In this document: positions 2,183 through 26,147 of the stretch, piece after piece | How positions within the stretch are numbered: position 1 is the stretch's first letter | Layout: every line of letters starts with the position of its first letter | Virus genome (UHGV): UHGV-1364246 | Strand: one strand, 5' to 3' | DNA from: a virus | DNA length: 39,893 nt | Made by a program: the position numbers and the translations under genes | The notes under the pieces: model-generated | The model's input: the letters and a program-made list of their open reading frames with translations, nothing else | What the model was told of the DNA's origin: nothing | Database searches by the model: none

Positions 2183-3746
2183 CTTGAGCCATGTCCTCAC
2201 CAGCTACTTGTCCAACAGTAGCGCCCATGTTAGCACCAGCAGCAGACGCACCGTTGACCACAGCTCCTTGAGCGGATTGTTCTGCCATACGTTGCAACTT
2301 CTCGTCCTGAGTCAGCAGCAAACCGGCAGTGTCAATACCTAAGGCATTCAGCAGTCGCAGCTTCAGGGTAGGCAAGTTAATGTCTGGGTCCTGTTGCAGA
2401 GGCTGTAGCCCGGTCATCATGTTTACTGCCTGAGTCAGCTTCTCTAAGTCTTGACCACGACCTAACGCTTCCAGACCAGTGGATACCGTAGGCTCTACTG
2501 CTTCTTTCGGAAGGTCAGGAATCATGCCAGCAGACTGAAGCTGGTTCATCAGTACACGGACGATAGGTAACTGAAGCTCTTGTGACTGCACTGAGTACAC
2601 GCCACCTAAGGTCGCCTCCAGTTCGCCAGCAACATAACGAATCTCTTCAGCAGTGACTCGCTCGGCATTACGCTGAACAGCACTATTAAGAAGGAAGGCC
2701 CAACCTAAACGTTGCTCGATAGCGTCAGCCACCGACTTAGCAATCGTAAAGTCCTGACCTTTCGTCAGTTGCAGGAAGTTGATGTCCTCAACTCGACCAG
2801 CCACGAACTCACCTGTAGCCGCCTTGTTCAGACGTCTAGGTTGCGTGATACCGTTCGGGTTAACGAGGCCCACCACCTTGGAGGCTACCTTAGCCATTTT
2901 GGTGATAGCTTCTGTAATCGTCTCCAGCGAGTTCAGGTCTCCCAGATACTCCTCGCAGTAAGAACGACCGTAGTCTTCACCATCCAGTCGAACCATTCGT
3001 ACCGGGATGTATGGACATGCAGTCAGCGGGTAGGAACCATCGGTCCCTGCCACCTCAATACCTTCCACTTCCTCGTAGCGAAGATACTCGTCGTCCTGAC
3101 GGTAGATGTGCGTATACACTTCAAGCTCGGTGTCAGGCTCATAGTCGTCTGCGTTGAGTTGAGACTTCACGTCTTCCGGTAGAGCACTAAACGCTACCTT
3201 GTCGAGAGTCACAATCTGCAAGATGTTACCGAACGCATCACGTTGAACAACGTAAGACACTAAGCGGTACATTCGCATTGGACTGTAGGTTCCTTGTTCT
3301 GGAGGAGGGATGTAGAGCAGACAGTTACCTGAGACGATAAGCTGCTTCAAAGCCTCAAACAATGGGACACGGAAACTGTTAGTCTCCATGTAGGCCATCA
3401 ACACACGCTCGACCATAGCCAGCCCTTCGTCAACACGAGCAGCCGCCTCTGAGTCCTGACTCAAGGTCTTGGCCTCATATTCGGAGACTGTCAGTCGCAT
3501 CCACGGTGACTGAGGGAATAACGCCAACATCAGCTTTGCAGCCAAGTTGTTCAAGCAGCGAGCACCCACAGCTTGCCACGGCGTCACGTATTCCGTAGAC
3601 GAGTTGTCGGACTCCTTAGGAAACAGTGACGGGATAGTGACAGCCGCACAGTTCTGAGCGCGCGTCTCATATGGCTGTCTACCGTTCTTCAGTCTGTCAT
3701 AAACTGCCTTCGCGCCTTCAGCAGCAAATCCTTCACGTTCAGCCAT
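2178..3746 (-). CDS. Portal (head-to-tail connector) protein, gp8-like
   Basis: 522 aa; MAEREGFAAEGAKAVYDRLKNGRQPYETRAQNCA... closely matches recalled T7 gp8. Confidence 0.9.
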   Translation of the reverse strand: MAEREGFAAEGAKAVYDRLKNGRQPYETRAQNCAAVTIPSLFPKESDNSSTEYVTPWQAVGARCLNNLAAKLMLALFPQSPWMRLTVSEYEAKTLSQDSEAAARVDEGLAMVERVLMAYMETNSFRVPLFEALKQLIVSGNCLLYIPPPEQGTYSPMRMYRLVSYVVQRDAFGNILQIVTLDKVAFSALPEDVKSQLNADDYEPDTELEVYTHIYRQDDEYLRYEEVEGIEVAGTDGSYPLTACPYIPVRMVRLDGEDYGRSYCEEYLGDLNSLETITEAITKMAKVASKVVGLVNPNGITQPRRLNKAATGEFVAGRVEDINFLQLTKGQDFTIAKSVADAIEQRLGWAFLLNSAVQRNAERVTAEEIRYVAGELEATLGGVYSVQSQELQLPIVRVLMNQLQSAGMIPDLPKEAVEPTVSTGLEALGRGQDLEKLTQAVNMMTGLQPLQQDPDINLPTLKLRLLNALGIDTAGLLLTQDEKLQRMAEQSAQGAVVNGASAAGANMGATVGQVAGEDMAQA

Positions 3747-7104: not shown

Positions 7105-9272
7105 TAGTGACACTCCTTCCACGTTGGTCCAATCTTACCTTCGGTATCAAGGACACATTTAAAGTTATAGAACTCACCCACCTTACGCATAGCAAGTTGA
7201 GCAATCCTGCGAATATCTTCGGCAATCTCCATGTTCCGAGCTGCAATCTGCAATTCGTCGTGGACCCATGCCATGTACGCAAAGTCTCCTTCCCAGCCGT
7301 GGACATACCCGGCCTCTTCGAGCATACGTTCAGTCTCTACAATCCAGTGCTTACAGACTACCGCACCATCGCCCTGAAGTAATGCGTTCAGTGCTGAGTG
7401 TGGAGACCGTATGTGGATACGTCGACCATCAAGTCCACGCAACCAACGGCGTTTCCACTTAACGATGTTCTCACCATCTACCCACTTAGAGTCTGATATT
7501 AACGTATTACTCACAGCTTCCCTGAGGTCCTTGATGGCTGGTGTACCCTCAATGAATTTCTTCATGAGAGCTGAACCTTCCTTCTTACCACCGCCGACTA
7601 TCAGTCCAATCTTAGCGGCCCCTGCACCATACAGGAACGCATAGATGAACGTCTTAGCGTTGTTGCGGAAAGCATCATGGTCGTGGCTCGACTTATCGCG
7701 TGGGACGTTAGGTGCTAACCCAGCGTTGACTGCGTTTGCCCAGTGGATGTCACCTTCGACTACAGTCTTCGCATATGCACCACCATCAAACGGAGCCGCT
7801 CGGTTCCCTAGACAACGAAGCTCAAGACCTGAAGCATCCACGCCTACTTGAATCCAAGGGTCTGGCTTGCCATCCTTCTTGTTCCACGCTGCACCGAAAG
7901 CACCACGGCAAGTCTCACCATATGGAGCACCGTTAGCCGGGACCTGAGCCATGTTTGGTGAGCTATGGGTCGCACGTCCTGTTACTGCACCACAAGGGTT
8001 GATTGAACCGTGCATACGTCCGTCTGGACCCACAAGTTTCAACCATGCGTTCTTACCTTCAGCAGCCTGACCGATGCGCTTCTGGACCACAAGATACTCA
8101 CGGACCAACTCTACACAAGCCTGAGCCTCTGCGTCTGGTAACTTAACGTGTTCTAACGTCTCGTCATCGACTACAGGTTTCCCAGTGTCAGTGAAGTCCA
8201 CAGGCTCCCAACCACGCTCCATCAGGACTTTCGCTAAGTGGTCTCCGCTTCCCGGATTAAATTCAACGTAAGTGATTGGCGTGAATGGTGCTCCCTCCAT
8301 CGTGTCTCGCGTATCGAGTTCACAAGGTTCGAGACCTAATCGTTGAGCTTTGTTCTTCGGCTTCTTAAAGATGCCACCGACCTTAGGATACACGACCCTC
8401 GGATACTTCGGAAGGTCCTTACCTGTCCGTGGATGCCTGAAGAACTCCTTGCCTCCCTTTGGTGCATACCAGCTACCGAAAGTAGAGCGCAGCTTGTCCA
8501 GTAACTCCGCACGTTTGACAGTGAGTTCACGATATAAGCCTTCGACCATCTCGGTGTTCATCGGATAGCCGTTACGCTCCATCTTCGCACAGGTCCACGC
8601 AGCATCATGTTCCAGACGCAACGCATAAATCTGTTCGAAAGCGAACTGTTCAGACTGGAAGTAATACTTGTCAGTCAGGAACTTCTTGAACAATGCCAGT
8701 GTGACCACAACGTCCTGAACGTTATAGTCCAGCATCTCCTGAGACGGGAACAACCATTCGTCCCCAGCCTTATATTCGATACCTTCGGCCTTGCACTTGG
8801 CAACGTAATCGTGTTTGTACTCACCCTTCATCTCACCGAGACGATAGCCCCAAGCCTCAAGAGACTGGCGTCCCATCATCTTAGGCGGCAGACGTCCAGC
8901 TTTCACCGCGCCTATGTCTGAGAACTTAATGTTGGGATACATCAAGCGGCCCAGCACCAAGGTATCAATCATCTTGTGTTTCGGGAAGTTAAATCGTTTC
9001 CCAAAGTACAGACGTTTCAGCTTGTCAATAGCCGGGACGTCATAGTTGATACCATTGTGGAATACCAGCATACCATCAGGTGATGCGGCAATCTCTTCCA
9101 CTTTATGAACATACTCTTTGAAGCCACCGACGATACCAACCATCGGAGCTACCCCATACTTAAGGGTCTCATTCGACTCGGCGTTAATCAGGACCCCGCA
9201 GTGGAACTGGGAGACTGTATCAAGGAGACCGTTGGTCTCGATGTCAGACCCATATACGTTACTTAAGTCCAT
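7104..9272 (-). CDS. DNA polymerase (gp5-like, family A with 3'-5' exonuclease)
   Basis: 722 aa; MDLSNVYGSDIETNGLL... exo motif; syntenic; size close to T7 gp5. Confidence 0.92.
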   Translation of the reverse strand: MDLSNVYGSDIETNGLLDTVSQFHCGVLINAESNETLKYGVAPMVGIVGGFKEYVHKVEEIAASPDGMLVFHNGINYDVPAIDKLKRLYFGKRFNFPKHKMIDTLVLGRLMYPNIKFSDIGAVKAGRLPPKMMGRQSLEAWGYRLGEMKGEYKHDYVAKCKAEGIEYKAGDEWLFPSQEMLDYNVQDVVVTLALFKKFLTDKYYFQSEQFAFEQIYALRLEHDAAWTCAKMERNGYPMNTEMVEGLYRELTVKRAELLDKLRSTFGSWYAPKGGKEFFRHPRTGKDLPKYPRVVYPKVGGIFKKPKNKAQRLGLEPCELDTRDTMEGAPFTPITYVEFNPGSGDHLAKVLMERGWEPVDFTDTGKPVVDDETLEHVKLPDAEAQACVELVREYLVVQKRIGQAAEGKNAWLKLVGPDGRMHGSINPCGAVTGRATHSSPNMAQVPANGAPYGETCRGAFGAAWNKKDGKPDPWIQVGVDASGLELRCLGNRAAPFDGGAYAKTVVEGDIHWANAVNAGLAPNVPRDKSSHDHDAFRNNAKTFIYAFLYGAGAAKIGLIVGGGKKEGSALMKKFIEGTPAIKDLREAVSNTLISDSKWVDGENIVKWKRRWLRGLDGRRIHIRSPHSALNALLQGDGAVVCKHWIVETERMLEEAGYVHGWEGDFAYMAWVHDELQIAARNMEIAEDIRRIAQLAMRKVGEFYNFKCVLDTEGKIGPTWKECH

Positions 9273-9664
9273 GTTTCTCCTCCAATTGCTCTAGCCAGTG
9301 TGCGGTGACCCACTCCATACTTCTTACCTAAGGAGCGGTGAGTCCAGCCACCTCCTGCGTAAAGCACCTTGGCCTCTTGTACTATTTCAGGTGTAAGCTT
9401 ATAGCTTCCATGTCGCACGCCTTTAGCGGTTCGACCTCTAACGTCTCTATCGTGATTGTTCTCAGCCCTTGTCCCCAGCTCCAAGTGTTCTGGATTGTAG
9501 CACGCTGGGTTGTCGCATTTGTGCCTCACGACCATTCCCTCTGGTATCGGACCATTCGCCTCCTCGAAGGCTATCAGATGCAGTCTACGGACCTTCCCGT
9601 TGACCTTTCGCATACCGTAGCCGAAACTATCTCGACACCCGGTCCACTCAATGCAATCAAACAT
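9263..9664 (-). CDS. HNH endonuclease
   Basis: ATG at 9662-9664 with GGAGGA upstream; GPIPEGMVVRHKCDNPACYNPEHLELGTRAENN HNH motif. The ORF-track start at 9700 is an extension. Confidence 0.7.
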   Translation of the reverse strand: MFDCIEWTGCRDSFGYGMRKVNGKVRRLHLIAFEEANGPIPEGMVVRHKCDNPACYNPEHLELGTRAENNHDRDVRGRTAKGVRHGSYKLTPEIVQEAKVLYAGGGWTHRSLGKKYGVGHRTLARAIGGETWT

Positions 9665-9680
9665 GGTTAATCCTCCGTTT

Positions 9681-9727
9681 AGTCTAATCATAAAGGCCAC
9701 TCGCTGTGAATGACCTTGAGTCTAGAC
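9681..9727 (-). ncRNA. RNase III processing element (R4.7-like)
   Basis: Conserved ~45-nt element ATCATAAAGGCCAC-N10-ATGACCTTGAGTCTA (plus sense), shared with 17041-17089 and 26086-26139; resembles recalled T7 R-site motif GACTCAAGGTC...GTGGCCTTTATG. Confidence 0.6.
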
Positions 9728-9910
9728 CTAGAAGTCTGTACGCAAGAAGTGGTACATGAACTTACGGTTAGCCTTCTTCCATGCCTTAGAGTCGAACCTC
9801 TGTTCTCCTAGAATGTTTGACAGGAAGGTTGCTTCATCGCTCCACCATTTGTACATGAACCGATGGTATCGAGCTTTAAGTTTCTTTAACACTAGAATGG
9901 AACCCTCCAT
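9728..9910 (-). CDS. Small hypothetical protein (gp4.3/4.5 position)
   Basis: 60 aa ORF with ATG start directly after the primase-helicase gene; weak SD. Confidence 0.35.
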   Translation of the reverse strand: MEGSILVLKKLKARYHRFMYKWWSDEATFLSNILGEQRFDSKAWKKANRKFMYHFLRTDF

Positions 9911-9925
9911 TTATACTTCTCGTAA

Positions 9926-11629
<1,704 letters not shown>

Positions 11630-11676
11630 TCACTCCTTAATCACAAATGCGAACAAAGGGACAGGACTCACGGTCC

Positions 11677-11699
11677 AATCCCTAAGGTGATAGTTTAGG
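11677..11699 (-). promoter_or_regulatory. Variant phage RNAP promoter (phi4-like), CCTTAGGG instead of CTATAGGG
   Basis: Minus-sense CTAAACTATCACCTTAGGGATT; overlaps the stop codon of the 71-aa gene. Confidence 0.55.
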
Positions 11700-11910
11700 C
11701 TTTAAAGAACTGAGACAACTGGTCAGCCTTGGTATCAGCCTGACGCGCCCTCATGCCAGCTTCCAGTGACGCGATGGTCAGCTTGTCAGCCAGAGCAGCA
11801 GCATCAGCCGCACCGTCAGCAGTCTTCTCTGCTACCTTTCGTTCCATAACCGCAGCACGACGATAACCCCGCACCACCAGACGACCAAGAAATTCGATAA
11901 GTTTAATCAT
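11695..11910 (-). CDS. Hypothetical 71-aa protein between lysozyme and primase-helicase
   Basis: ATG at 11908-11910 with AAGGAGA upstream; Ala/Lys/Arg-rich, probably helical. Confidence 0.5.
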   Translation of the reverse strand: MIKLIEFLGRLVVRGYRRAAVMERKVAEKTADGAADAAALADKLTIASLEAGMRARQADTKADQLSQFFKA

Positions 11911-11934
11911 TGAGTTGTTCTCCTTTAGAGTTTA

Positions 11935-12393
11935 TTAACCGTGGTCGGAAGTTACCAGTTCGTTGGTAGACAGCCAGCGTTGTAAGTCGAAACTTGGACA
12001 CGCCTTTGGTGCTACGTCATGGTGTGCTTTGATTTCTGCCTGAGGATACAGGACCTTCAGGTCGGCCAGCTTGTTGCGCAGGGAGTTCATCTGGGCCGGA
12101 GTGAAGTTAGCTTCAAACTTGCCCTTAGCGTCAATTCCACCTACAAGGCAGACGCCTACAGACCGTGAGTTCCAGTCCTTAACGTGCGACCCTACGACAT
12201 TGACCGGGCGGCCCTCTTCCACAGCACCATCTCGCTTGATGATAAAGTGGTAGCCTACGTCCAGCCAGCCTTGCTGTTTATGCCACATACGGATGGTCTC
12301 TACCCCGATGTCCATCTCTGGCTTGGTAGCCGAACAGTGAACGAAGATAGCGTCAGTCCGGGACCGTGGGTTGAACTGTACCTTACTTACCAT
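11935..12393 (-). CDS. Lysozyme / N-acetylmuramoyl-L-alanine amidase (gp3.5-like, RNAP inhibitor in T7)
   Basis: 152 aa; DAIFVHCSATKP...WLDVGYHFIIKRDG...GVCLVGGIDAKGKF...HHDVAPKACPSFDL...NELVTSD nearly collinear with recalled T7 lysozyme. Confidence 0.92.
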   Translation of the reverse strand: MVSKVQFNPRSRTDAIFVHCSATKPEMDIGVETIRMWHKQQGWLDVGYHFIIKRDGAVEEGRPVNVVGSHVKDWNSRSVGVCLVGGIDAKGKFEANFTPAQMNSLRNKLADLKVLYPQAEIKAHHDVAPKACPSFDLQRWLSTNELVTSDHG

Positions 12394-12874
12394 TGTACAC
12401 CACCAATTCTACGACCACCAGATTCAGGTGCTGGGTGAAGCGCTGTGCATCCGTGGTGTGCATCTGGAGGCGCTTATGGTTGAAGACGTGTGAGTTGCTA
12501 ATCTTCACGTAAACTTCGTCAGGCTTGCCGTGGACGATGAACGTCTGGCCTACACCAATCTTGTCGATTGTCAGGACCTCACGCTTCACAGTCACAGGCG
12601 GTACGCTCGAAGCTGGCAGGACTTGAGTGGTCTGTACACCAGTGAGTTTCTCTTCCGGCTTGATTTCCTCAAGTTCATGAGCATAGACCCATGCTCCCCA
12701 CATACCATCAGGCTGAGTATCATACCCGGCCGAACCATGCTTAAACGTACCGGGAGTTGTGGACTCTACGAGTACATAGTCCATGGATGGCCACTGGTCT
12801 TGCTCACACTTAGTAACGATAGTCCCACGAGGCCAGCCACACGTAGCTACTGACAGTTTAAACTTCTTGCTCAT
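12383..12874 (-). CDS. Hypothetical 163-aa protein inserted between endonuclease I and lysozyme (no T7 counterpart)
   Basis: ATG overlaps the gp3 stop (ATGA); its 3' end overlaps the gp3.5 start by 11 nt; SD AAAGGAG upstream. Confidence 0.6.
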   Translation of the reverse strand: MSKKFKLSVATCGWPRGTIVTKCEQDQWPSMDYVLVESTTPGTFKHGSAGYDTQPDGMWGAWVYAHELEEIKPEEKLTGVQTTQVLPASSVPPVTVKREVLTIDKIGVGQTFIVHGKPDEVYVKISNSHVFNHKRLQMHTTDAQRFTQHLNLVVVELVVYNGK

Positions 12875-13326
12875 TTCTTAACTCCTTTCTTCTTGGGGAT
12901 GAGTATACCTGAAGGCAGACGTACAGTCGACTCTCGAAGCCACTCAACCGGAATGAATTTATCGGCATACTTATAGCCGTTCTTTTCGCACCATGCGCCA
13001 TACGTGGTTGGAGACCCTTTGTATAACTTGGAGCGTGAACTTGAGAACACGAACCGGATGTCTAACTCTGGGTGCTGTTCTCGTACCAGAAGGTGCTTCT
13101 TACGGTCATCACTATCGAAGATACCTTTGGTCTCCACGATGATGCCGTTGGGAAGGATAAAGTCTGGTGTGTACTTGTGGTCGGAAGCCGGAATCACATA
13201 GTTGATATAATGGCTTTCGTACTCCGCTTTGACGCCGTTCTGTTCCAGCCACTGCTGGTTCTTGGCTTCAAGTCCAGAGCGGTAGGCACCCACAGAGTGC
13301 CCCCGTTTTGCAGACCATTGGGCCAT
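12871..13326 (-). CDS. Endonuclease I (gp3-like Holliday junction resolvase)
   Basis: 151 aa; syntenic between SSB and lysozyme; PDF...ETKG core typical of T7 endonuclease I. Confidence 0.85.
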   Translation of the reverse strand: MAQWSAKRGHSVGAYRSGLEAKNQQWLEQNGVKAEYESHYINYVIPASDHKYTPDFILPNGIIVETKGIFDSDDRKKHLLVREQHPELDIRFVFSSSRSKLYKGSPTTYGAWCEKNGYKYADKFIPVEWLRESTVRLPSGILIPKKKGVKK

Positions 13327-14024
13327 TAGAAGTCGTAATCGCCACCAGAGCCGGAGTCGTCACCACCTTCGGAACCATCGTCACCGAAGTCATCAGACCC
13401 GAAGTCACCATCGGTTGACGCTTTGTAGCCAGTACCAAGGTCTTCATCATCACCCCAGCCACCATCGCCACCAGCACCATCGCCCTTCCACTCCTTCAGT
13501 TCTACCAGAAGGCAGGACTCAAGCTGGAGCTTAACGCTTGCACCAGTCGCAGCGTTCCACTTGAACGGCAGGACTTTGAACTTGACCTTCAGCTTAGACC
13601 CAGCGCCAATATTCGGGACGTCACGGATGAGTTTAGCATCAGTGTCGTAGAACCGTAATACGATAGGCTCGGACTTGCCGTCTTTCAGGTAAGACGCAAA
13701 GCATTTAAACTTCAGGGTAACAGTACCGTCACCGTTCTCAATCCACGGCATATCGCCTTCACGCGGCTCGATAGGCTTCTTGCCACGCTGAACCTGAGGT
13801 GGGTTCTTCTCGTGGTCTGCGAGTGCTTTCGCATACGCATCGTCGTGAATCTTCTGTAAGACATCGATCATCTTACGGACCTTCGGGTCATCAAGACTGA
13901 AAGTCAGGTTAACCTTATGCTCACCACGCTCGTTAAACTTGGTGTCTGCTTTGTTCAGCCATGCGTAAGGCTCAACGATACCAGCTACCGGAGTGGTGAA
14001 AGTCTTCAGTTGCTCTTTAGCCAT
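13326..14024 (-). CDS. Single-stranded DNA-binding protein (gp2.5-like)
   Basis: 232 aa (same as T7 gp2.5); acidic C-terminal tail ending DYDF. Confidence 0.88.
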   Translation of the reverse strand: MAKEQLKTFTTPVAGIVEPYAWLNKADTKFNERGEHKVNLTFSLDDPKVRKMIDVLQKIHDDAYAKALADHEKNPPQVQRGKKPIEPREGDMPWIENGDGTVTLKFKCFASYLKDGKSEPIVLRFYDTDAKLIRDVPNIGAGSKLKVKFKVLPFKWNAATGASVKLQLESCLLVELKEWKGDGAGGDGGWGDDEDLGTGYKASTDGDFGSDDFGDDGSEGGDDSGSGGDYDF

Positions 14025-14063
14025 CGGTGTAAATCTCCTAATTTAAAGTTACGAACTGGACGT

Positions 14064-14086
14064 CTGTCCTACAGTGATAGTTTAGG
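14064..14086 (-). promoter_or_regulatory. Phage RNAP promoter (phi2.5-like), CTGTAGG variant
   Basis: Minus-sense CTAAACTATCACTGTAGGACAG; overlaps the gp2 stop codon. Confidence 0.65.
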
Positions 14087-14240
14087 TCTCAGGACGAATC
14101 CGTCCAACCACAAACCCAGCGTCCTCATACTCTTGGGACTTCAGGGTAGCCTCTTCAAGAGACTTTGCGTACACCGGAACATCGAAGGACTGAACGCGAC
14201 CCTCAAGCTCCACGATGTATTTCTTCTCAACCTCAGTCAT
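14082..14240 (-). CDS. Host RNA polymerase inhibitor (gp2-like), 52 aa
   Basis: Translated by hand (under the ORF-track size cutoff): [52 protein letters not shown]; resembles recalled T7 gp2 (SFEVPIYAETLDEA...AGFEVTRVRP). Confidence 0.7.
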
Positions 14241-14318
14241 AGACCGCGCTCCTTCCATTGGTTATATAACGTAATGTAGTCCGGGTTGAGAGTCTTCTCA
14301 TACATCTCCCGGCACCAC

Positions 14319-14762
14319 TCACTCGGCAGCATAGCACTTACCTTTATGCAAGTCGAACAGCTCCTGATAGAAGGCTGCTTTGTTCAGGTCCTTCTCCATA
14401 GTAGCCAGCTCTGACTTCTTGCCAGCCCGGAGTCGATATTTAAGAACGTTACCCATGCAGAACCCACGGAACTCGCTGACAGTCATGGACCGAGCGATAA
14501 TCTCAATGGACTCAATGCCATCAAAGACCTGATAGTGCGACGGTTTACGGACGCTGTCTTCCTGACCTATTGTTGTCTGCTCGGTCTGCTCCTGATTGGT
14601 AATTTTTAAGGCACTAGAGGAGTGAATGACTGGTTCAGATAAACCGGGCCACTTAACAACAACTATGTGCCCCTTTCTAACCATAATCACCTTGCCACAG
14701 GAGAGTCCCATGTAGGCTATAATTAGTCCAACATATTTAACTGTATCCCCCACCTTAATCAT
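14319..14762 (-). CDS. gp1.7-position protein (possible nucleotide kinase homolog), function uncertain
   Basis: 147 aa; syntenic only; no motif confidently recognised. Confidence 0.35.
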   Translation of the reverse strand: MIKVGDTVKYVGLIIAYMGLSCGKVIMVRKGHIVVVKWPGLSEPVIHSSSALKITNQEQTEQTTIGQEDSVRKPSHYQVFDGIESIEIIARSMTVSEFRGFCMGNVLKYRLRAGKKSELATMEKDLNKAAFYQELFDLHKGKCYAAE

Positions 14763-15015
14763 TGACCACCTCCTTTACGAACTCAACGAACAGACGAACT
14801 CTGGGCCACTTAGTGTAGACCACGGGCACATTGGTCTCACACTTCTGGCGGGCCTCTTCAGCTTTGCCAGGAGTAATCAGCGCGAAGACTGTAGGTGATA
14901 ACTTAACTGCCTTCCCGAAGTAGCCCAGCTTCTCGTTGCGCTTAATGCAAGCGAACGGGTTGTTGGACAGGTGTAAGGTATTGGAATAACGGTTGAACAT
15001 TAAGTTCTTAGACAT
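14755..15015 (-). CDS. gp1.6-position hypothetical protein
   Basis: 86 aa ORF downstream of a phage promoter; size matches T7 gp1.6. Confidence 0.4.
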   Translation of the reverse strand: MSKNLMFNRYSNTLHLSNNPFACIKRNEKLGYFGKAVKLSPTVFALITPGKAEEARQKCETNVPVVYTKWPRVRLFVEFVKEVVND

Positions 15016-15039
15016 AGAGTCTCCTTAGGTTGTTGATGG

Positions 15040-15062
15040 TTGTCCTATAGTGATAGCTTAGG
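15040..15062 (-). promoter_or_regulatory. Phage RNAP promoter (phi1.5/1.6-like), AAGC variant
   Basis: Minus-sense CTAAGCTATCACTATAGGACAA. Confidence 0.7.
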
Positions 15063-15082
15063 GTCTAGCTGGTGGCACAGAA

Positions 15083-15115
15083 GCAAAGAAACCCAGCAGT
15101 CCTAAGACCACTGGG
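15083..15115 (-). terminator. Putative early terminator (TE-like) for host RNAP
   Basis: Minus-sense CCCAGUGG-UCUUAGGA-CUGCUGGG hairpin followed by UUUCUUUGC; sits where T7 TE lies relative to the ligase. Confidence 0.5.
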
Positions 15116-15121
15116 TTGACG

Positions 15122-15583
15122 TTATAATGAATCTCTTAAGGCTACTGCCTCTGCTATGGTATCTAACGTACCGTATGACTTACGCTTTATCCGCAGTTGC
15201 CAGCGACCAGTCCTTGGCTCAAAGTTAACGTACTTCTCACCAGACTTGCAGTGGCTACGGACGGCGACGTTTGTCAGGTTCACTGCCTGAGTTACACACC
15301 TTAGGTTCTCAATTCGGTTATCAGAAGGGTCTCTGTTTATATGGTCAATAACCATTCCTTCCGGTATCTTACTGTGAGTTAGTTCCCAGACTACCCGGTG
15401 TGCAAGGATCTGACCTTTGGTTGTGTTTATAATCCAGTAGCCATCCTTGCGTCGATAGCCTAAGTGTTTACCCTTCAGGTTGGCGACTCCCGAAGGAGCC
15501 GTCCGGTCAACCTTAAATCTTGACTGTAGGATTGTCCTCAGTTCCTCGCCACTGGTCGAATGACGGATGTCGCAAACTTCCAT
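15122..15583 (-). CDS. HNH endonuclease with AP2-like DNA-binding region (free-standing homing-endonuclease-like)
   Basis: 153 aa; HRVVWELTHSKIPEGMVIDHINRDPSDNRIENLR; ATG at 15581-15583 with GGAGGAG upstream; 5' end overlaps the last 71 nt of the ligase gene. Confidence 0.75.
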   Translation of the reverse strand: MEVCDIRHSTSGEELRTILQSRFKVDRTAPSGVANLKGKHLGYRRKDGYWIINTTKGQILAHRVVWELTHSKIPEGMVIDHINRDPSDNRIENLRCVTQAVNLTNVAVRSHCKSGEKYVNFEPRTGRWQLRIKRKSYGTLDTIAEAVALRDSL

Positions 15584-16574
15584 CTGGTGTCTCCTCCATG
15601 TAGGTAATCTGACAGGCCCACCCTTTGTAGTAATCTGGGTCTGACTTTACGTTCTCTGTGAACTCGGACATAAGGGCGCGACTAATGTTAGTTGCGGAGA
15701 CCTCCATCCCGTTCTCAAGCATAACGTCGAAACCAATTACTAGACCTTCGTTGGCGAGACCTTCGGTTCCCCATACTGGTCTAACAACGTGACCATCCGC
15801 CTCTTCGCTTGGCTTCATTTTCCACATGCCTGACTTCTTGCCACGCTTGTATTTACCCAGTGGGTCCTTGACTACCAGACCCTCGTGTCCTTCCAGACGC
15901 TTCTGTTCGTACAGGGAGTTGAGCGACTCAAGGTCATAGACCGTGTGTGACTCAGACAGAACCCAGTCGATTTCCGGGAAGTATTTCTGGAGGAGAGGGA
16001 CGATAGCTTCGGCCTTCAGGCGTGTGACGCTATGGATAGGACCTTCAGCTTTCGGGTCGTTGATGACGTTAAGGTCAACGATACCGTAGACAACCACGCG
16101 GATGTGGTCGGTTGCCAGATGGAAAGGGACCTTATGCTTCTTCTTGGTGTCTATGTCAGCATCGGGGTTGCCATTCCAAGCGTAGTTCTTAGTGTCTGAC
16201 CACACGGTACGGACTAGACCTGAGGAAGTGTTGAAGTCGGTTGCAGGAACCATGACCTCACCATCTATCATCAGGCCAGTGCCTTCGTAGCCAGCTTGCT
16301 TCAGGAACCATAGCCAGTCAGACGCATTGAATGGGTGAGGGTCTGCTACCTTATAGTCTCCTGCTGAGGTTGACAACCAGCTCAACGCTGGAAGCTCTTT
16401 AGACTCACGGCTTAACCATTTGGTCTCACCAGTTGGGAAGACCGGTAGGTTCAACCGGACACCATCGTACTTCACTTCAGCTTCCAGAGACCCAGCAGCT
16501 TCCAAAGCCTTCTTAACGCCAGACTCAGAGTAATCTACAGCTCGGTGCGGGTTGGTTTTGATAGTCGTAGTCAT
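15513..16574 (-). CDS. ATP-dependent DNA ligase (gp1.3-like)
   Basis: 353 aa; adenylation motif EVKYDGVR; syntenic. Confidence 0.9.
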   Translation of the reverse strand: MTTTIKTNPHRAVDYSESGVKKALEAAGSLEAEVKYDGVRLNLPVFPTGETKWLSRESKELPALSWLSTSAGDYKVADPHPFNASDWLWFLKQAGYEGTGLMIDGEVMVPATDFNTSSGLVRTVWSDTKNYAWNGNPDADIDTKKKHKVPFHLATDHIRVVVYGIVDLNVINDPKAEGPIHSVTRLKAEAIVPLLQKYFPEIDWVLSESHTVYDLESLNSLYEQKRLEGHEGLVVKDPLGKYKRGKKSGMWKMKPSEEADGHVVRPVWGTEGLANEGLVIGFDVMLENGMEVSATNISRALMSEFTENVKSDPDYYKGWACQITYMEETPDGSLRHPSFDQWRGTEDNPTVKI

Positions 16575-16825
16575 TATTTCCAGCTCCTATAAGCATTCAG
16601 TTGCTGTAAGCACCATTGCTCACAGTTAAAGATTTCGTGTTCGGTAAACTCGCGGGAGACCAGAGGCTTCCCACCGTCTGCTTCAATGATGCGGACCAGC
16701 GTTGTGCGGGAGCATGGTAGGTCATCCATTCGGACCTCAAGTCCTGCCAAGCTCATCTCGCGGTGTGTCCGGCCCAACGATGACCACTGGCTCGTGGACG
16801 CATCAAATAACCAACGTCTGCTCAT
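16574..16825 (-). CDS. gp1.2-like protein (dGTPase inhibitor in T7)
   Basis: 83 aa; ends ...AYRSWK like T7 gp1.2 (...DWK); syntenic. Confidence 0.65.
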   Translation of the reverse strand: MSRRWLFDASTSQWSSLGRTHREMSLAGLEVRMDDLPCSRTTLVRIIEADGGKPLVSREFTEHEIFNCEQWCLQQLNAYRSWK

Positions 16826-16828
16826 GCC

Positions 16829-17008
16829 TTATGCTCCTACGAAGTATTTCTCTTGGTTTACCATAGAGTCTTTGCCTTCAGCGTTACGGAAAGCACCCTT
16901 GACACCACCGCCACGCTTGGTCTTGTTCAGCTTGCGGCCCTTCGGAATGTAACCTTCAGTCTTCTGACGTTCACGGATGCGCTCGAAGTTGATAGTGTTC
17001 TGATACAT
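16829..17008 (-). CDS. gp1.1-like small basic protein, 59 aa
   Basis: Translated by hand: MYQNTINFERIRERQKTEGYIPKGRKLNKTKRGGGVKGAF...; GRKLNKTKR motif as in T7 gp1.1. Confidence 0.65.
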   Translation of the reverse strand: MYQNTINFERIRERQKTEGYIPKGRKLNKTKRGGGVKGAFRNAEGKDSMVNQEKYFVGA

Positions 17009-17040
17009 GTGGTTAAATCTCCAGTAGTTTACGTTATGTT

Positions 17041-17089
17041 AGGGTTAATCATGAAGGCCACGACTCTGAGTCATGACCTTGAGTCTAAT
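17041..17089 (-). ncRNA. RNase III processing element (R1.1-like) between the promoter and gene 1.1
   Basis: Second copy of the ATCATGAAGGCCAC...ATGACCTTGAGTCTA element. Confidence 0.6.
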
Positions 17090-17108
17090 CCTATAGTGAT
17101 AGTTTAGG
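17086..17108 (-). promoter_or_regulatory. Phage RNAP promoter (phi1.1-like)
   Basis: Minus-sense CTAAACTATCACTATAGGATTAGA. Confidence 0.75.
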
Positions 17109-17183
17109 GTTAACCTCTTCTGCGTTGGATTAAAGTGAATACTGCGAGTGCTCCCAGCCACAGGGCCAGTAACTGTAGGTCTG

Positions 17184-17384
17184 TCATTTGGTTGCCGCCT
17201 CTTTAAGGGCTTGCTCGTGCATCAGCTCCACCTGCTTAACCAGCCACTTGAATTTGACGTTAAGCTGCTTTGACATCTCGGTAGGAATGACCGTGGTCTT
17301 CACCAGACCCTTGCTGTTGTGTTCTGTTACGGTCACAATTTGAGTCCCACCCTTAACGCCAGTCTGCTTGTGTGCAAATTTCAT
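17184..17384 (-). CDS. Hypothetical 66-aa Lys-rich protein immediately downstream of the RNAP gene
   Basis: ATG at 17382-17384 with AGGAGAGAGAG upstream; no T7 gene at this position. Confidence 0.5.
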   Translation of the reverse strand: MKFAHKQTGVKGGTQIVTVTEHNSKGLVKTTVIPTEMSKQLNVKFKWLVKQVELMHEQALKEAATK

Positions 17385-17398
17385 AACTCTCTCTCCTG

Positions 17399-20080
17399 TT
17401 AAGCGAATGCAAAGTCTGAAGACAAGATGTCTTCGATATTCAGTTTACCTTTCTTCGGAAGCTCAGGCAACTTGTCGCGCTGACTCTCGTGAAGCTGGTA
17501 TTCGAACTGCTCGTAGAAGTCAAGCAGTACATCGTTGTCGCGGTAGGTCTCGACCATTGTCTCACGGACGCCACGGAACAGATACTCAGCGTCAGCCGGG
17601 ATGGTCCCGAAGCTATCGTGAATCACTGCGAATGACATCACACCATACTTGCGGTGCGTGTGGACTACAGTCTTGCGGAGGTGGCTGCCATCTTGTGAGT
17701 GGACGAAGTTCGGGCTAATGCCTGACTCCTGCTTGTGCTTGTCTAGCTCTTTCTTCGTGCCTTTGTTGACTGTAGGCTGAAGGTTGAATGACCCTAAGAA
17801 CATCAGGTTCAGACGAGTGGTATCCTTCTTGCGGTATTCCTGCCAGACCGGGAAACCATCAGGTGTGACCCAGTGTACTGGAAGGCAAGGCTTCAGGATT
17901 TCACCAGTCTTCTTGTCCTTCACTTCAGCAGCCAGCAGCTTGGCAGCACCTTGAAGCCACTTCATCGCGTCAACCGCAGCAACTACGGTCACACTCACAG
18001 CTTCCCAAATCATCTTAGCCATGAAGCGAGACGCTTGTCTTGGTTCAGTGAACATAGAGCCAGACCCTGAGTCAATCGCTGGCATCACGATGTCCTCGTA
18101 CACTTGGTCTGCGAATCCGTACTCTTTCGACCCGTAGGCCAGAGTCATGACCGAACGCTTAGTTACCTTGCGTGACATGCCGTAAGTCAGCCACTGCCTG
18201 GCCAGCTCTCGTGTCCCCAGCTTGAGGCGCTCGGTAATCTCACCAGTTTTCTTATCCTCGTGAGTCACCATCTCGTTGTCCGTACCGTTAACCAGCAGGA
18301 CTTTAAGCTCCTCCTCAATGCGGTCAGACACGATGCGGTAGATGTCTTGGACCTTACCGGAAGGCGTCAGGTTTACTGCATGTCCACCTATGTGGTCTCG
18401 AAGCATCGCGCTGAAGTGCTGAATCCCAGAGCAGGACCCATCGAAAGCTATCGGCAGCGAGCAGGAGTAAGACAAACCGTGGTGCATTACGCCAGCATAC
18501 TCGAAGCAGAACGCTAGGAAGCAGAACGGAGAGTCTAACTTACCCCACCACTCAATGCTGTCCATCGGTGCCTTAGCGGTAGCCATGATGTTGTCGTGGT
18601 TGTCTTCCACCCACTTGATGCGCTCCTCGAAGGTGACTTTATCAATACCCGCACAGTTTGCACCGTGGACCTTCAGCCATTTGAAACCATCAGCACCAAT
18701 AGGCTTACCGACTGCCAGAGTTAGGAGACCCTTCTGCATGTCGTTACCCTGAGGGTTGAACATCGGCACAGCGTAGACGCGACCACGCCAGTCCATGTTG
18801 TACGGGAACCAGATGGCCTTGAACTGAGAGAACTTGTTCGCTTGGTTAACGATAAAGCTCAGCGACAATCTGCGTGACTGTCGGGCCTTCTCTCGGCGGT
18901 AGATACCAGCAGCAGCCTTCTTCCATTCCTTGAGTTCCTCTTCAGTCTCACCCGCATAGTCTTCAGGCTTCAGCGGCTCCATCTGAGGGATGTCATCAAT
19001 AGGCGTGTTGTTCAACTTCTCTACCATGTTCACCACGTCCAGAACCTTCTTGTTCACCTTCCAAGGCGTATTCTGGATGATATTCACAGCGTCATAGACT
19101 TCAGGCATGTACACGTCTTCATAACGTGCCACCGCAGACTTAGACCCTAAGCGAATCAGTGGTAGTGGTCTGCGACCTTTGGCCCAGTACCCACCTCCTA
19201 CGACACCAGTCCACGGCTTAGGTGGAACGACACAGGGCTGGTAGACTGGAGCGATACCCGCAAGGCTGAATCCTCGTTGTGCCATCTTCTTGACCCAGAA
19301 GTCTGACAGGTGGACCATCTCGACATCAGCCGCTGCATTGCCAGCACCGTAACGCTTAAGCTCGACCAGTTGTGTTGACTGGATGACAATCTCAAGCATC
19401 TTGATTCCAACGTGGACAGCCTCGGTCGGACTCCAAGTTCCCCACGCATCTTCAAGTTGGCCTTGCTCCAGCATGGAGGTCTCAACAGCTTGCATGTAGG
19501 CTTTTTTGTAGGATGCCCCGGCGCGCTTGTTCAGGTTCTCAGCTATCGCCTTCTTGAAGTGCTCCTTCTCCTTATCACGGATGCGACCGAAGCGGATTTC
19601 ATCCTCAAGTGTGCGACCTATCGCGGAGGCCATCGGTGTAATCGGTATCCCTTCAGGCTTGACCAGCTTGGAGAGGATGACCTTCAGTATGATGACCGCA
19701 GCAGACTCACAGGAGATGCGCAGAGAGCGGTCCTTGACGGCCTTCTCTTCAGTGCTCAACATGGTGAACGCTACGCTAGGACGAGAGGTTGACAGCTTAC
19801 CGTCTGGACCTTCGTGCCACTCCTTGACGGCTTGCGCAATCTTAGGGACCAGAGTCTGCATCAAAGGCTTGGCGACCTGATTGTCTGCCAGTTCCCCGCG
19901 CTCAGTCTGTCGCTCAAGGTTCTTGATGAAACGTCGCTCGCCTTCAGTGTATGCCTCATGCTCAAGCTGAAGCTGTTTGACTGCAAGGTCTTGCCCGTAG
20001 TGGTCAGCCAGCAGGTTAAACGGCTCAATGGCGTTCGACACATCAGAGAAGTCGTGTTTGTCAATAGAGATGACGCTCAT
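17399..20080 (-). CDS. DNA-directed RNA polymerase, single-subunit (T7 gene 1-like)
   Basis: 893 aa; collinear with recalled T7 RNAP (PYNMDWRGRVYA, DGSCSGIQHFSAMLRD, HDSFGT, C-terminal FAFA); specificity-loop region reads LMFLGSFNLQPTVN versus T7 LMFLGQFRLQPTIN. Confidence 0.97.
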   Translation of the reverse strand: MSVISIDKHDFSDVSNAIEPFNLLADHYGQDLAVKQLQLEHEAYTEGERRFIKNLERQTERGELADNQVAKPLMQTLVPKIAQAVKEWHEGPDGKLSTSRPSVAFTMLSTEEKAVKDRSLRISCESAAVIILKVILSKLVKPEGIPITPMASAIGRTLEDEIRFGRIRDKEKEHFKKAIAENLNKRAGASYKKAYMQAVETSMLEQGQLEDAWGTWSPTEAVHVGIKMLEIVIQSTQLVELKRYGAGNAAADVEMVHLSDFWVKKMAQRGFSLAGIAPVYQPCVVPPKPWTGVVGGGYWAKGRRPLPLIRLGSKSAVARYEDVYMPEVYDAVNIIQNTPWKVNKKVLDVVNMVEKLNNTPIDDIPQMEPLKPEDYAGETEEELKEWKKAAAGIYRREKARQSRRLSLSFIVNQANKFSQFKAIWFPYNMDWRGRVYAVPMFNPQGNDMQKGLLTLAVGKPIGADGFKWLKVHGANCAGIDKVTFEERIKWVEDNHDNIMATAKAPMDSIEWWGKLDSPFCFLAFCFEYAGVMHHGLSYSCSLPIAFDGSCSGIQHFSAMLRDHIGGHAVNLTPSGKVQDIYRIVSDRIEEELKVLLVNGTDNEMVTHEDKKTGEITERLKLGTRELARQWLTYGMSRKVTKRSVMTLAYGSKEYGFADQVYEDIVMPAIDSGSGSMFTEPRQASRFMAKMIWEAVSVTVVAAVDAMKWLQGAAKLLAAEVKDKKTGEILKPCLPVHWVTPDGFPVWQEYRKKDTTRLNLMFLGSFNLQPTVNKGTKKELDKHKQESGISPNFVHSQDGSHLRKTVVHTHRKYGVMSFAVIHDSFGTIPADAEYLFRGVRETMVETYRDNDVLLDFYEQFEYQLHESQRDKLPELPKKGKLNIEDILSSDFAFA

Positions 20081-21126: not shown

Positions 21127-21560
21127 AGTGATTTCCGTTTAATACAGTCGTATATCCCATACCCTATCAGCCAGATAACTGGCGCTAGACATACCCAATA
21201 TCCCACACCCATAGTTACCTCCTATTAATGCAAGTGGTAATCTTTGAGGCCACCTATCAGTTAGATGACCTCTCGCCTATCACTCAGTACCCGCCTGTTA
21301 GCGTTATGGTCAGGCTATGGTGATTAGCCACGTAGCAAGCCCCGCGCTTCATCATCTCGTAGCAACCATCGTAGAACGCCTGTTCACTGCTATAAGTTAT
21401 CTGGTACATGTTTACTTGTCCTCAGCGTGTAAGCTGTCGTGTATGAGCTTGCGGCCCTCATAGACCGCCTTCAGGAGACGCATAGTCGCATCGTGGTTTA
21501 ATTGCCCGGTCTTGACCATAATCCGGGCGTTGATGATGTGGTGCTGGCAGAGACCATAAG

Positions 21561-26037: not shown

Positions 26038-26085
26038 AGTCGCCCTCCCGGTTTATCAGATTTCACGTAGAGTATCCTCCACTAG

Positions 26086-26139
26086 TTAGTGTTAACCATA
26101 AAGGCCACTACATATAGTAATGACCTTGAGTCTAACACT
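26086..26139 (-). ncRNA. RNase III processing element (R18.5-like)
   Basis: Third copy of the CCATAAAGGCCAC...ATGACCTTGAGTCTA element, between genes 18 and 18.5. Confidence 0.6.
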
Positions 26140-26147
26140 TAAGATAT

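Follow-up and report, generated by a model that had tools for sequence, protein, structure and literature searches.

The virus genome UHGV-1364246 (39,893 nucleotides; "the window" hereafter means this whole stretch of DNA) contains a 163-amino acid open reading frame (ORF) on the minus strand (12383-12874, 163 codons plus stop, ATG start) between the genes for endonuclease I (gene 3) and amidase/lysozyme (gene 3.5). Judged by its sequence, this ORF is another allele of gp3.2, an already annotated, uncharacterised family. Its product combines a near-invariant C-terminal module with an N-terminal module that is encoded on a swappable cassette of approximately 240 nt. We tentatively favor a reading in which gp3.2 would be a middle-phase protein that binds and does not catalyse, its base being constant and its recognition head exchangeable, aimed at host takeover or counter-defence.

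A gp3.2 allele in a K1F-like genome

The window is a K1F-like (Kayfunavirus) genome, complete, circularly permuted and in reverse complement relative to the standard T7-type map. The gp3.2 coding sequence was delimited from the ORF list and assigned through PHROG matches, identity to EcoDS1 and the ratio of nonsynonymous to synonymous substitution rates (dN/dS). The closest named protein is gp3.2 of EcoDS1, with 89% amino acid identity, and gp3.2 of K1F shares 78.5%, both over the full length. In both phages the ORF at the equivalent place is annotated "gp3.2", has the same position and overlaps as the window gene, and is most diverged in its N-terminal module. The window protein shows full-length similarity to the family, occupies the slot between genes 3 and 3.5 and carries the C-terminal signature with every invariant residue. 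Matches were obtained to PHROG 16385 (E 1.6e-90, residues 1-163) and PHROG 15211 (E 2.2e-40, residues 94-163). A megablast search with a 1.5-kb region retrieved 226 phage records, the majority of them Kayfunavirus records from Escherichia, Salmonella, Enterobacter and Citrobacter phages, and tblastn located gp3.2 at the same position in 221 of the approximately 226 phage records sharing the region, with at least 80% of the long form covered in 55 of the 221. Records of the EcoDS1/K1F family are annotated "gp3.2" or "hypothetical protein", and in the phage literature gp3.2 is an entry in a gene table, without function (PMC4925675). The original prediction, made from the sequence of this genome alone, had described the gene as an orphan, a description overturned by these matches and by the Providencia clade described below.

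Among 1.84 billion representative proteins, only 16 clusters were matched in a profile search, all of the gp3.2 family, and every match with a recorded contig size sits on a contig of at most approximately 41 kb, no longer than a phage genome of approximately 40 kb. The family is restricted to T7-like phages. In T7-like phages of Providencia, the slot that follows endonuclease I is occupied by a diverged sister clade of approximately 34 clusters, and a second profile search seeded with this clade returned approximately 34 clusters and reached no annotated relative. In T7 itself, as the original prediction had stated, gene 3 is followed directly by gene 3.5 with no gene between them, and the presence/absence comparison that it had proposed for this locus finds gp3.2 in the great majority of the records above and absent from T7. 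No homology to a T7 core protein was found, as a tblastn search of 50,697 phage records returned K1F-like phages and one weak Providencia match, and not T7.

Several observations were made on individual records. The Providencia phages PSTRCR_120 and PSTCR2 carry one or two additional small genes between the gp3.2-like gene and the endolysin (at 1659-2012 in locus L001, and at 2457-2810 and 2791-3030 in locus L030), which suggests that the gp3/gp3.5 junction is a general accessory slot in those T7-like phages. Escherichia phage YZ1 (MG845865) encodes a 74-amino acid short form of gp3.2 at 789-1013 of its locus that is present and unannotated. An "RNA polymerase inhibitor" label under two matches, among them that in the YZ1 record, was rejected as an annotation of gp3.2, since it belongs to gp3.5. 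A Kayfunavirus gp3.2 with enterobacterial-phage neighbors was also seen in MT350292 (Enterococcus phage EFA-1) and OR786095 (Staphylococcus phage MBBL139); the Gram-positive host labels of these two records look doubtful.

A constant C-terminal module behind exchangeable N-terminal modules

Alignments, PHROG matches and dN/dS delimit a C-terminal module spanning residues 85-163 (12386-12622, minus strand), the core of which (residues 94-163) corresponds to PHROG 15211. This module is near-invariant within Kayfunavirus (dN/dS 0.08), is basic (isoelectric point 9.5), contains five histidines and no cysteine, and carries the signature SNSHVFN-x4-QMHTT-x3-RF. Both the Kayfunavirus and the Providencia clades keep the block VG..F.V....Y.K(I/M)SNSH(V/C)FN....QMHTT...RF. 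The C-terminal module also exists alone as a protein of 74-76 amino acids, which is the commonest form among the fetched loci (13 of the 24 at which the gene was located). This short form, found in Cronobacter phage Dev2, Citrobacter phages SH3 and SH4 and many Salmonella and Enterobacter Kayfunaviruses, shares the locus, the overlaps and the C-terminal module of the long form (77-81% identity) but has neither the linker nor the SH3-like module at the N-terminus. The existence of this stand-alone form shows that the C-terminal module is the self-sufficient core of gp3.2. Even from a more diverse alignment, the AlphaFold2 (AF2) model of this module was unreliable, with a mean predicted local distance difference test (pLDDT) score of 57, and it yielded no structural match.

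In the window, the C-terminal module is preceded by a variable linker (residues 73-84, 12623-12658, minus strand) and an N-terminal module of type A (residues 1-72, 12659-12874, minus strand). The linker, delimited by alignment, is rich in Pro, Ser and Val, has a dN/dS of 0.62, and in some relatives contains an inserted module of approximately 65 amino acids. The type-A module, with the motifs GWPxGTIVTKC and QPDGMWGAWV, is modeled by AlphaFold as a five-stranded barrel (pLDDT ~90) that superposes on SH3 domains, so that its fold is confidently predicted to be SH3-like, at fold level only. Sequence identity of the N-terminal module to SH3-like barrels such as eukaryotic SH3 domains, the Hpy99I beta-barrel domain and the KorB C-terminal domain is 2-19%, and fold-level likeness of this kind says little about the ligand. 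The 94 aligned type-A sequences share an invariant scaffold (GWPxGTIVTKC, LVE, KHG, QPDGMWGAWV), interspersed with positions at which as many as 17 different residues occur; the hypervariable sites are residues 8-12, 28-33, 43, 49-51 and 64-67. Mean column entropy in the type-A alignment is 1.08 bits for the N-terminal module compared to 0.20 bits for the C-terminal module, and a dN of 0.31 for the N-terminal module compared to 0.03-0.06 for the neighboring genes corresponds to amino acid evolution that is 5-10 times faster.

The same C-terminal module is also found behind at least six N-terminal modules without detectable mutual sequence similarity. One protein, P0121, has two tandem N-terminal modules ahead of it, and in P0081, P0119 and P0121 (226-227 amino acids) a type-D module (VGxxYxxHP...WxGH) was observed between the type-A barrel and the C-terminal module. 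Comparison by hhalign among N-terminal types A, G and C and the C-terminal module gave probabilities below 1%, and the type-D module matched the C-terminal module over 17 columns (LTxxDLxVGxxYxxH) with a probability of 30%. An origin of the modules as duplicates of one another was rejected at the sequence level by hhalign.

The DNA encoding the N-terminal module behaves as a cassette. Breakpoints from blastn together with sliding identity place the swappable segment at 12633-12871 on the minus strand, and relatives have it exchanged or deleted while the flanking DNA remains 92-97% identical. Compared with one related genome (L003), the window is 97% identical up to 12871 and 95% identical from 12632 onward, with zero alignment between these points, where the relative carries an unrelated module. 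Compared with a second (L018), window positions 12575-12861 are deleted and the cassette is mostly absent. Genomes whose gp2.5, gp3 and gp3.5 proteins are 98-100% identical to those of the window can differ in gp3.2 architecture. The suggestion of the original prediction that this is an acquired gene can accordingly be kept in part: the gene as a whole is genus-wide and is not a recent arrival here, and it is only the N-terminal half, as the cassette of approximately 240 nt, that behaves as acquired.

Other losses were also found. In Escherichia virus TH20 (MT446394, an UNVERIFIED record), the equivalent of window positions 12431-12590 is missing around position 1763 of its locus. Two proteins from metagenomes, P0133 and P0135, terminate in a -1 frame reading of the last ~20 codons, and P0123 has lost most of the N-terminal module in frame. 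Across these four variants most of the gene is gone, and the last ~45-65 nt with the gp3.5 ribosome-binding site (RBS) are always kept. The occurrence of independent deletion and frameshift variants suggests that gp3.2 may be dispensable.

gp3.2 is under selection as a protein

In order to place gp3.2 relative to its neighbors, dN/dS was calculated from nine genomes with the same gene type. The value for gp3.2 is 0.18 overall (0.24 for the N-terminal half and 0.08 for the C-terminal half), compared to 0.08-0.14 for gp2.5, gp3 and gp3.5, which is the opposite of the poor coding-level conservation that the original prediction had named as grounds for abandoning its proposal. In the signature block of the C-terminal module, synonymous sites change as often as elsewhere (proportion of synonymous differences, pS, 0.47) and replacements are rare (proportion of nonsynonymous differences, pN, 0.07), a combination showing that the protein is what is constrained, rather than the underlying nucleic acid. 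The free synonymous sites, the lack of an Rfam match and the chance-level occurrence of sigma-70-like promoters and terminators rule out a DNA or RNA element as the cause of the conservation. Full-length conservation was found in 120+ protein clusters, and the gp3.2 ORF is confirmed as a genuine selected coding sequence.

These data bear directly on the alternative that the ORF is a chance or non-functional one, or that its 3' end alone matters as a ribosome-binding platform for gp3.5. That the deletion variants keep just this 3' end with the gp3.5 RBS, and that the short form is unannotated in some records, would fit such a view. It is nevertheless effectively refuted by the coding-level conservation, with dN/dS values of 0.08-0.24 alongside high synonymous divergence. 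More than 250 protein clusters conserved over the full length, a strong Shine-Dalgarno (SD) sequence and a frame that is open in all 28 distinct DNA versions also speak against it, and we regard it as extremely improbable.

The start codon could be placed with similar evidence. W14, T18, V20, C23 and D26 are invariant within the first 30 amino acids, and at each of the 24 related loci in which the C-terminal module motif identified the gene, the first ATG overlaps the gp3 stop codon. Together these two features support M1 as the true start. A public gene call from the Joint Genome Institute (JGI), P0019 (window 12383-12784, 133 amino acids), apparently made on this very genome, begins at Met31 and omits 30 conserved residues; compared with the aligned family, this call is probably truncated.

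Position within the class II unit

The gene is tightly packed between its neighbors, all on the minus strand. Upstream, gene 3 for endonuclease I (12871-13326) shares a 4-nt ATGA overlap with gp3.2 (12871-12874), in which the gp3.2 start meets the gp3 stop in an arrangement consistent with translational coupling. The SD sequence of gp3.2, AAGGAG (12882-12887), lies inside the terminal part of gene 3, with a spacing of 7 nt to the ATG. Downstream, gene 3.5 for the amidase/lysozyme (11935-12393) overlaps the end of gp3.2 by 11 nt (12383-12393), and the 3' end of gp3.2 (12383-12404) contains both the gp3.5 RBS, GGTGGTG (12398-12404), and the gp3.5 ATG (12391-12393). The two neighbors were identified from the ORF list and annotations of homologous regions, and the same GGTGGTG RBS has been given for the amidase of the SH phages (PMC4925675). 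The ORF length, both overlaps and the SD reported in the original prediction are all reproduced by the ORF list and the sequence.

Its further claim, that this looks like an expressed class II gene, agrees with the promoter positions as well as with the coupling-type overlaps. A phage RNA-polymerase promoter lies upstream of gene 2.5 at 14067-14089 (minus strand), equivalent to phi2.5 of EcoDS1, and the next copy lies upstream of gene 4 at 11680-11702 (minus strand); both belong to repeat family D1. As gp3.2 lies between them, gp2.5, gp3, gp3.2, gp3.5 and gp3.7 fall into one class II unit, driven by the promoter at 14067-14089.

This setting gives rise to the strongest rival explanation, in which gp3.2 would be a helper of the phage class II machinery, acting as a stoichiometric partner or regulator of endonuclease I (to restrain or target its junction cleavage and host-DNA breakdown) or of the gp3.5 amidase, with the N-terminal modules as minor add-ons. 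The gp3.5 amidase of T7 also inhibits the phage RNA polymerase. The constant place between gp3 and gp3.5, with ATGA and 11-nt overlaps that would provide coupled, near-equimolar synthesis, is what such a helper would be expected to show, as is the preservation of the gp3 junction in the Providencia clade and a C-terminal module that is found throughout the 221 records and is as constrained as the core genes. However, T7, T3-type phages and other relatives do without gp3.2, deletion variants exist, and Providencia phages place one or two other genes between the gp3.2-like gene and the amidase. Moreover, the variant of the gp3.2 C-terminal module does not track gp3 or gp3.5; in L018, gp3 is 99% and gp3.5 98% identical to the window proteins, but the gp3.2 C-terminal module is 79% identical. 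As compact T7-like genomes routinely overlap unrelated neighbors, the coupling itself is weak evidence, and we consider a helper role doubtful.

A possible modular binding adaptor

Searches for function covered both the window protein and its relatives. A Pfam scan of the window protein returned zero families at E<=10, including SH3, SH3b, Tudor and KOW, NCBIfam and PDB-sequence searches gave no family match, and PADLOC-DB defence profiles gave 0 families at E<=10. Pfam scans of 10 diverse gp3.2 relatives gave no match above threshold, and Foldseek against BFVD returned nothing at E<=0.001, with weak matches to uncharacterised small phage proteins only. The original prediction had likewise recognized no motif, and the Pfam, NCBIfam, PADLOC and PDB-sequence results agree with it. 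Imm11 (E 0.04-0.08) was set aside as a sub-threshold chance match below the cut-off, and the HAS1 helicase (E 0.48 in a PDB sequence-profile search) was likewise dismissed as a chance match.

The lack of any match to an enzyme, defence or structural family was counted in favor of binding over catalysis, which leads to the adaptor reading introduced above. On this reading, gp3.2 would be translated from the phi2.5 transcript during the middle (class II) phase, coupled to endonuclease I and the amidase, and would act via binding and not via catalysis. The basic C-terminal module would dock on a conserved partner, either nucleic acid or a conserved protein of the phage or the host, and perform a constant task, while the N-terminal head, with its aromatic-rich conserved scaffold and hypervariable patches, would be aimed at a variable host factor. 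The protein as a whole might then serve as a host-takeover or counter-defence adaptor. An outward-facing role of this kind is favored by the non-homologous module replacement, the 5-10-fold faster evolution of the head, the narrow range and the apparent dispensability, features that, by analogy, are hallmarks of accessory conflict genes.

A more ambitious version, which we consider unlikely as a whole, is that gp3.2 represents a new class of modular adaptors. A C-terminal domain of approximately 70 residues with an unseen fold would sit on a conserved hub, whether DNA, a host hub or a phage component (replisome, resolvase or RNA polymerase), and carry interchangeable small beta-barrel heads, each neutralizing or recruiting a different host factor. 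Cassette swaps would then re-tune host range or counter-defence.

Another possibility is catalysis, in which the N-S-H...N...H-T-T...R residues would make the C-terminal module a minimal enzyme such as a nuclease or phosphoesterase that depends on His. Two His, two Asn, Ser/Thr and Arg form an invariant polar block in both clades, the constraint acts at the protein level, and the neighboring genes include nucleases. Against this, the module has just ~70 residues, and its residue spacing, as read from the sequence, misfits HNH and 2H motifs, with no Cys available for structural zinc. HNH, His-Me finger and small nuclease profiles gave no Pfam, NCBIfam or PDB match for the window protein and the 10 relatives, and neither 2H, HIT nor any other catalytic family was matched in these three databases. 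We judge an enzyme to be highly improbable. Less remote, though still improbable, is a small nucleic-acid-binding protein, in which the basic and beta-rich C-terminal module, with or without the SH3-like barrel, would coat or mark DNA or RNA in replication or recombination in the manner of Sso7d/Cren7, Tudor/KOW or integrase C-terminal domains; this possibility overlaps both the adaptor and the helper explanations.

A number of points weigh against the adaptor reading and keep it tentative. In the searches described here, neither module gave a homology or structure match to a known anti-defence or host-takeover protein. The C-terminal module is near-universal in the genus with core-like conservation, a pattern not usually expected of an arms-race protein and just as compatible with housekeeping in phage development, and its strong conservation argues for a constant task of half or more of the protein. 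The hypervariable N-terminal sites may be unconstrained loops, as a mean dN/dS of 0.24 is not positive selection, and what the invariant His/Asn/Ser/Thr/Arg residues form could be a site for catalysis or metal instead of a binding surface. Dispensability is not proven, its support being weakened by the origin of the variants in an UNVERIFIED record and metagenome assemblies. Finally, the supplements of two accessory-gene screens (bioRxiv 10.1101/2023.04.06.535777; PMC12373910) yielded no family motifs or matching sequences, and literature searches on gp3.2, K1F and EcoDS1 returned no functional study and no expression, knockout or interaction data.

Comparison with conflict genes and significance

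Polyvalent and modular phage conflict proteins have reportedly been treated by Iyer et al. 2017. The likeness of gp3.2 to the accessory conflict genes of enterobacterial phages lies in a small early or middle gene that keeps a fixed slot among core genes, module fusion and replacement inside near-identical flanks, fast evolution and apparent dispensability. It differs from them in that one of its modules is as conserved as a core gene, and counter-defence is for gp3.2 only a candidate role.

K1F-like phages (K1F, LM33_P1 and Bas105) are widely used as therapy and engineering chassis, and gp3.2 is one of the few genes that set their class II module apart from that of T7. If the reading of a constant base with a swappable head is true, the cassette slot of ~240 nt would be a natural, engineerable determinant of host interaction, and the invariant C-terminal module would represent a small fold not seen before, together with its defined ligand. 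If the partner is instead endonuclease I or the lysozyme, gp3.2 would add a regulatory layer to T7-type DNA processing or lysis that is lacking in T7. As the family is already annotated, the present allele is a lead for experiments and not a discovery, and it would be no surprise to a T7 specialist.

Other features of the window

The phage RNA-polymerase promoter occurs in 11 copies of 23 nt (repeat family D1) with the minus-strand consensus CCTAAACTATCACTATAGG. These minus-strand sites start at 1125, 2163, 5372, 11680, 14067, 15043, 17089, 20153, 23551, 29194 and 36470, and the RNA polymerase ORF itself lies at 17399-20080 (minus strand). A conserved element of approximately 55 nt (repeat families D4, D5 and D17) was observed on the minus strand at 9678-9735, 17030-17095 and 26078-26142, with a weaker copy near 21230-21280. 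No Rfam match was obtained for the hairpin elements within window positions 9000-18000. On the transcribed strand, the element is predicted to form a stem-internal loop-stem hairpin (dG -19 to -23 kcal/mol, z -3.6 to -4.1), and these hairpins look like T7-type RNase III processing sites.

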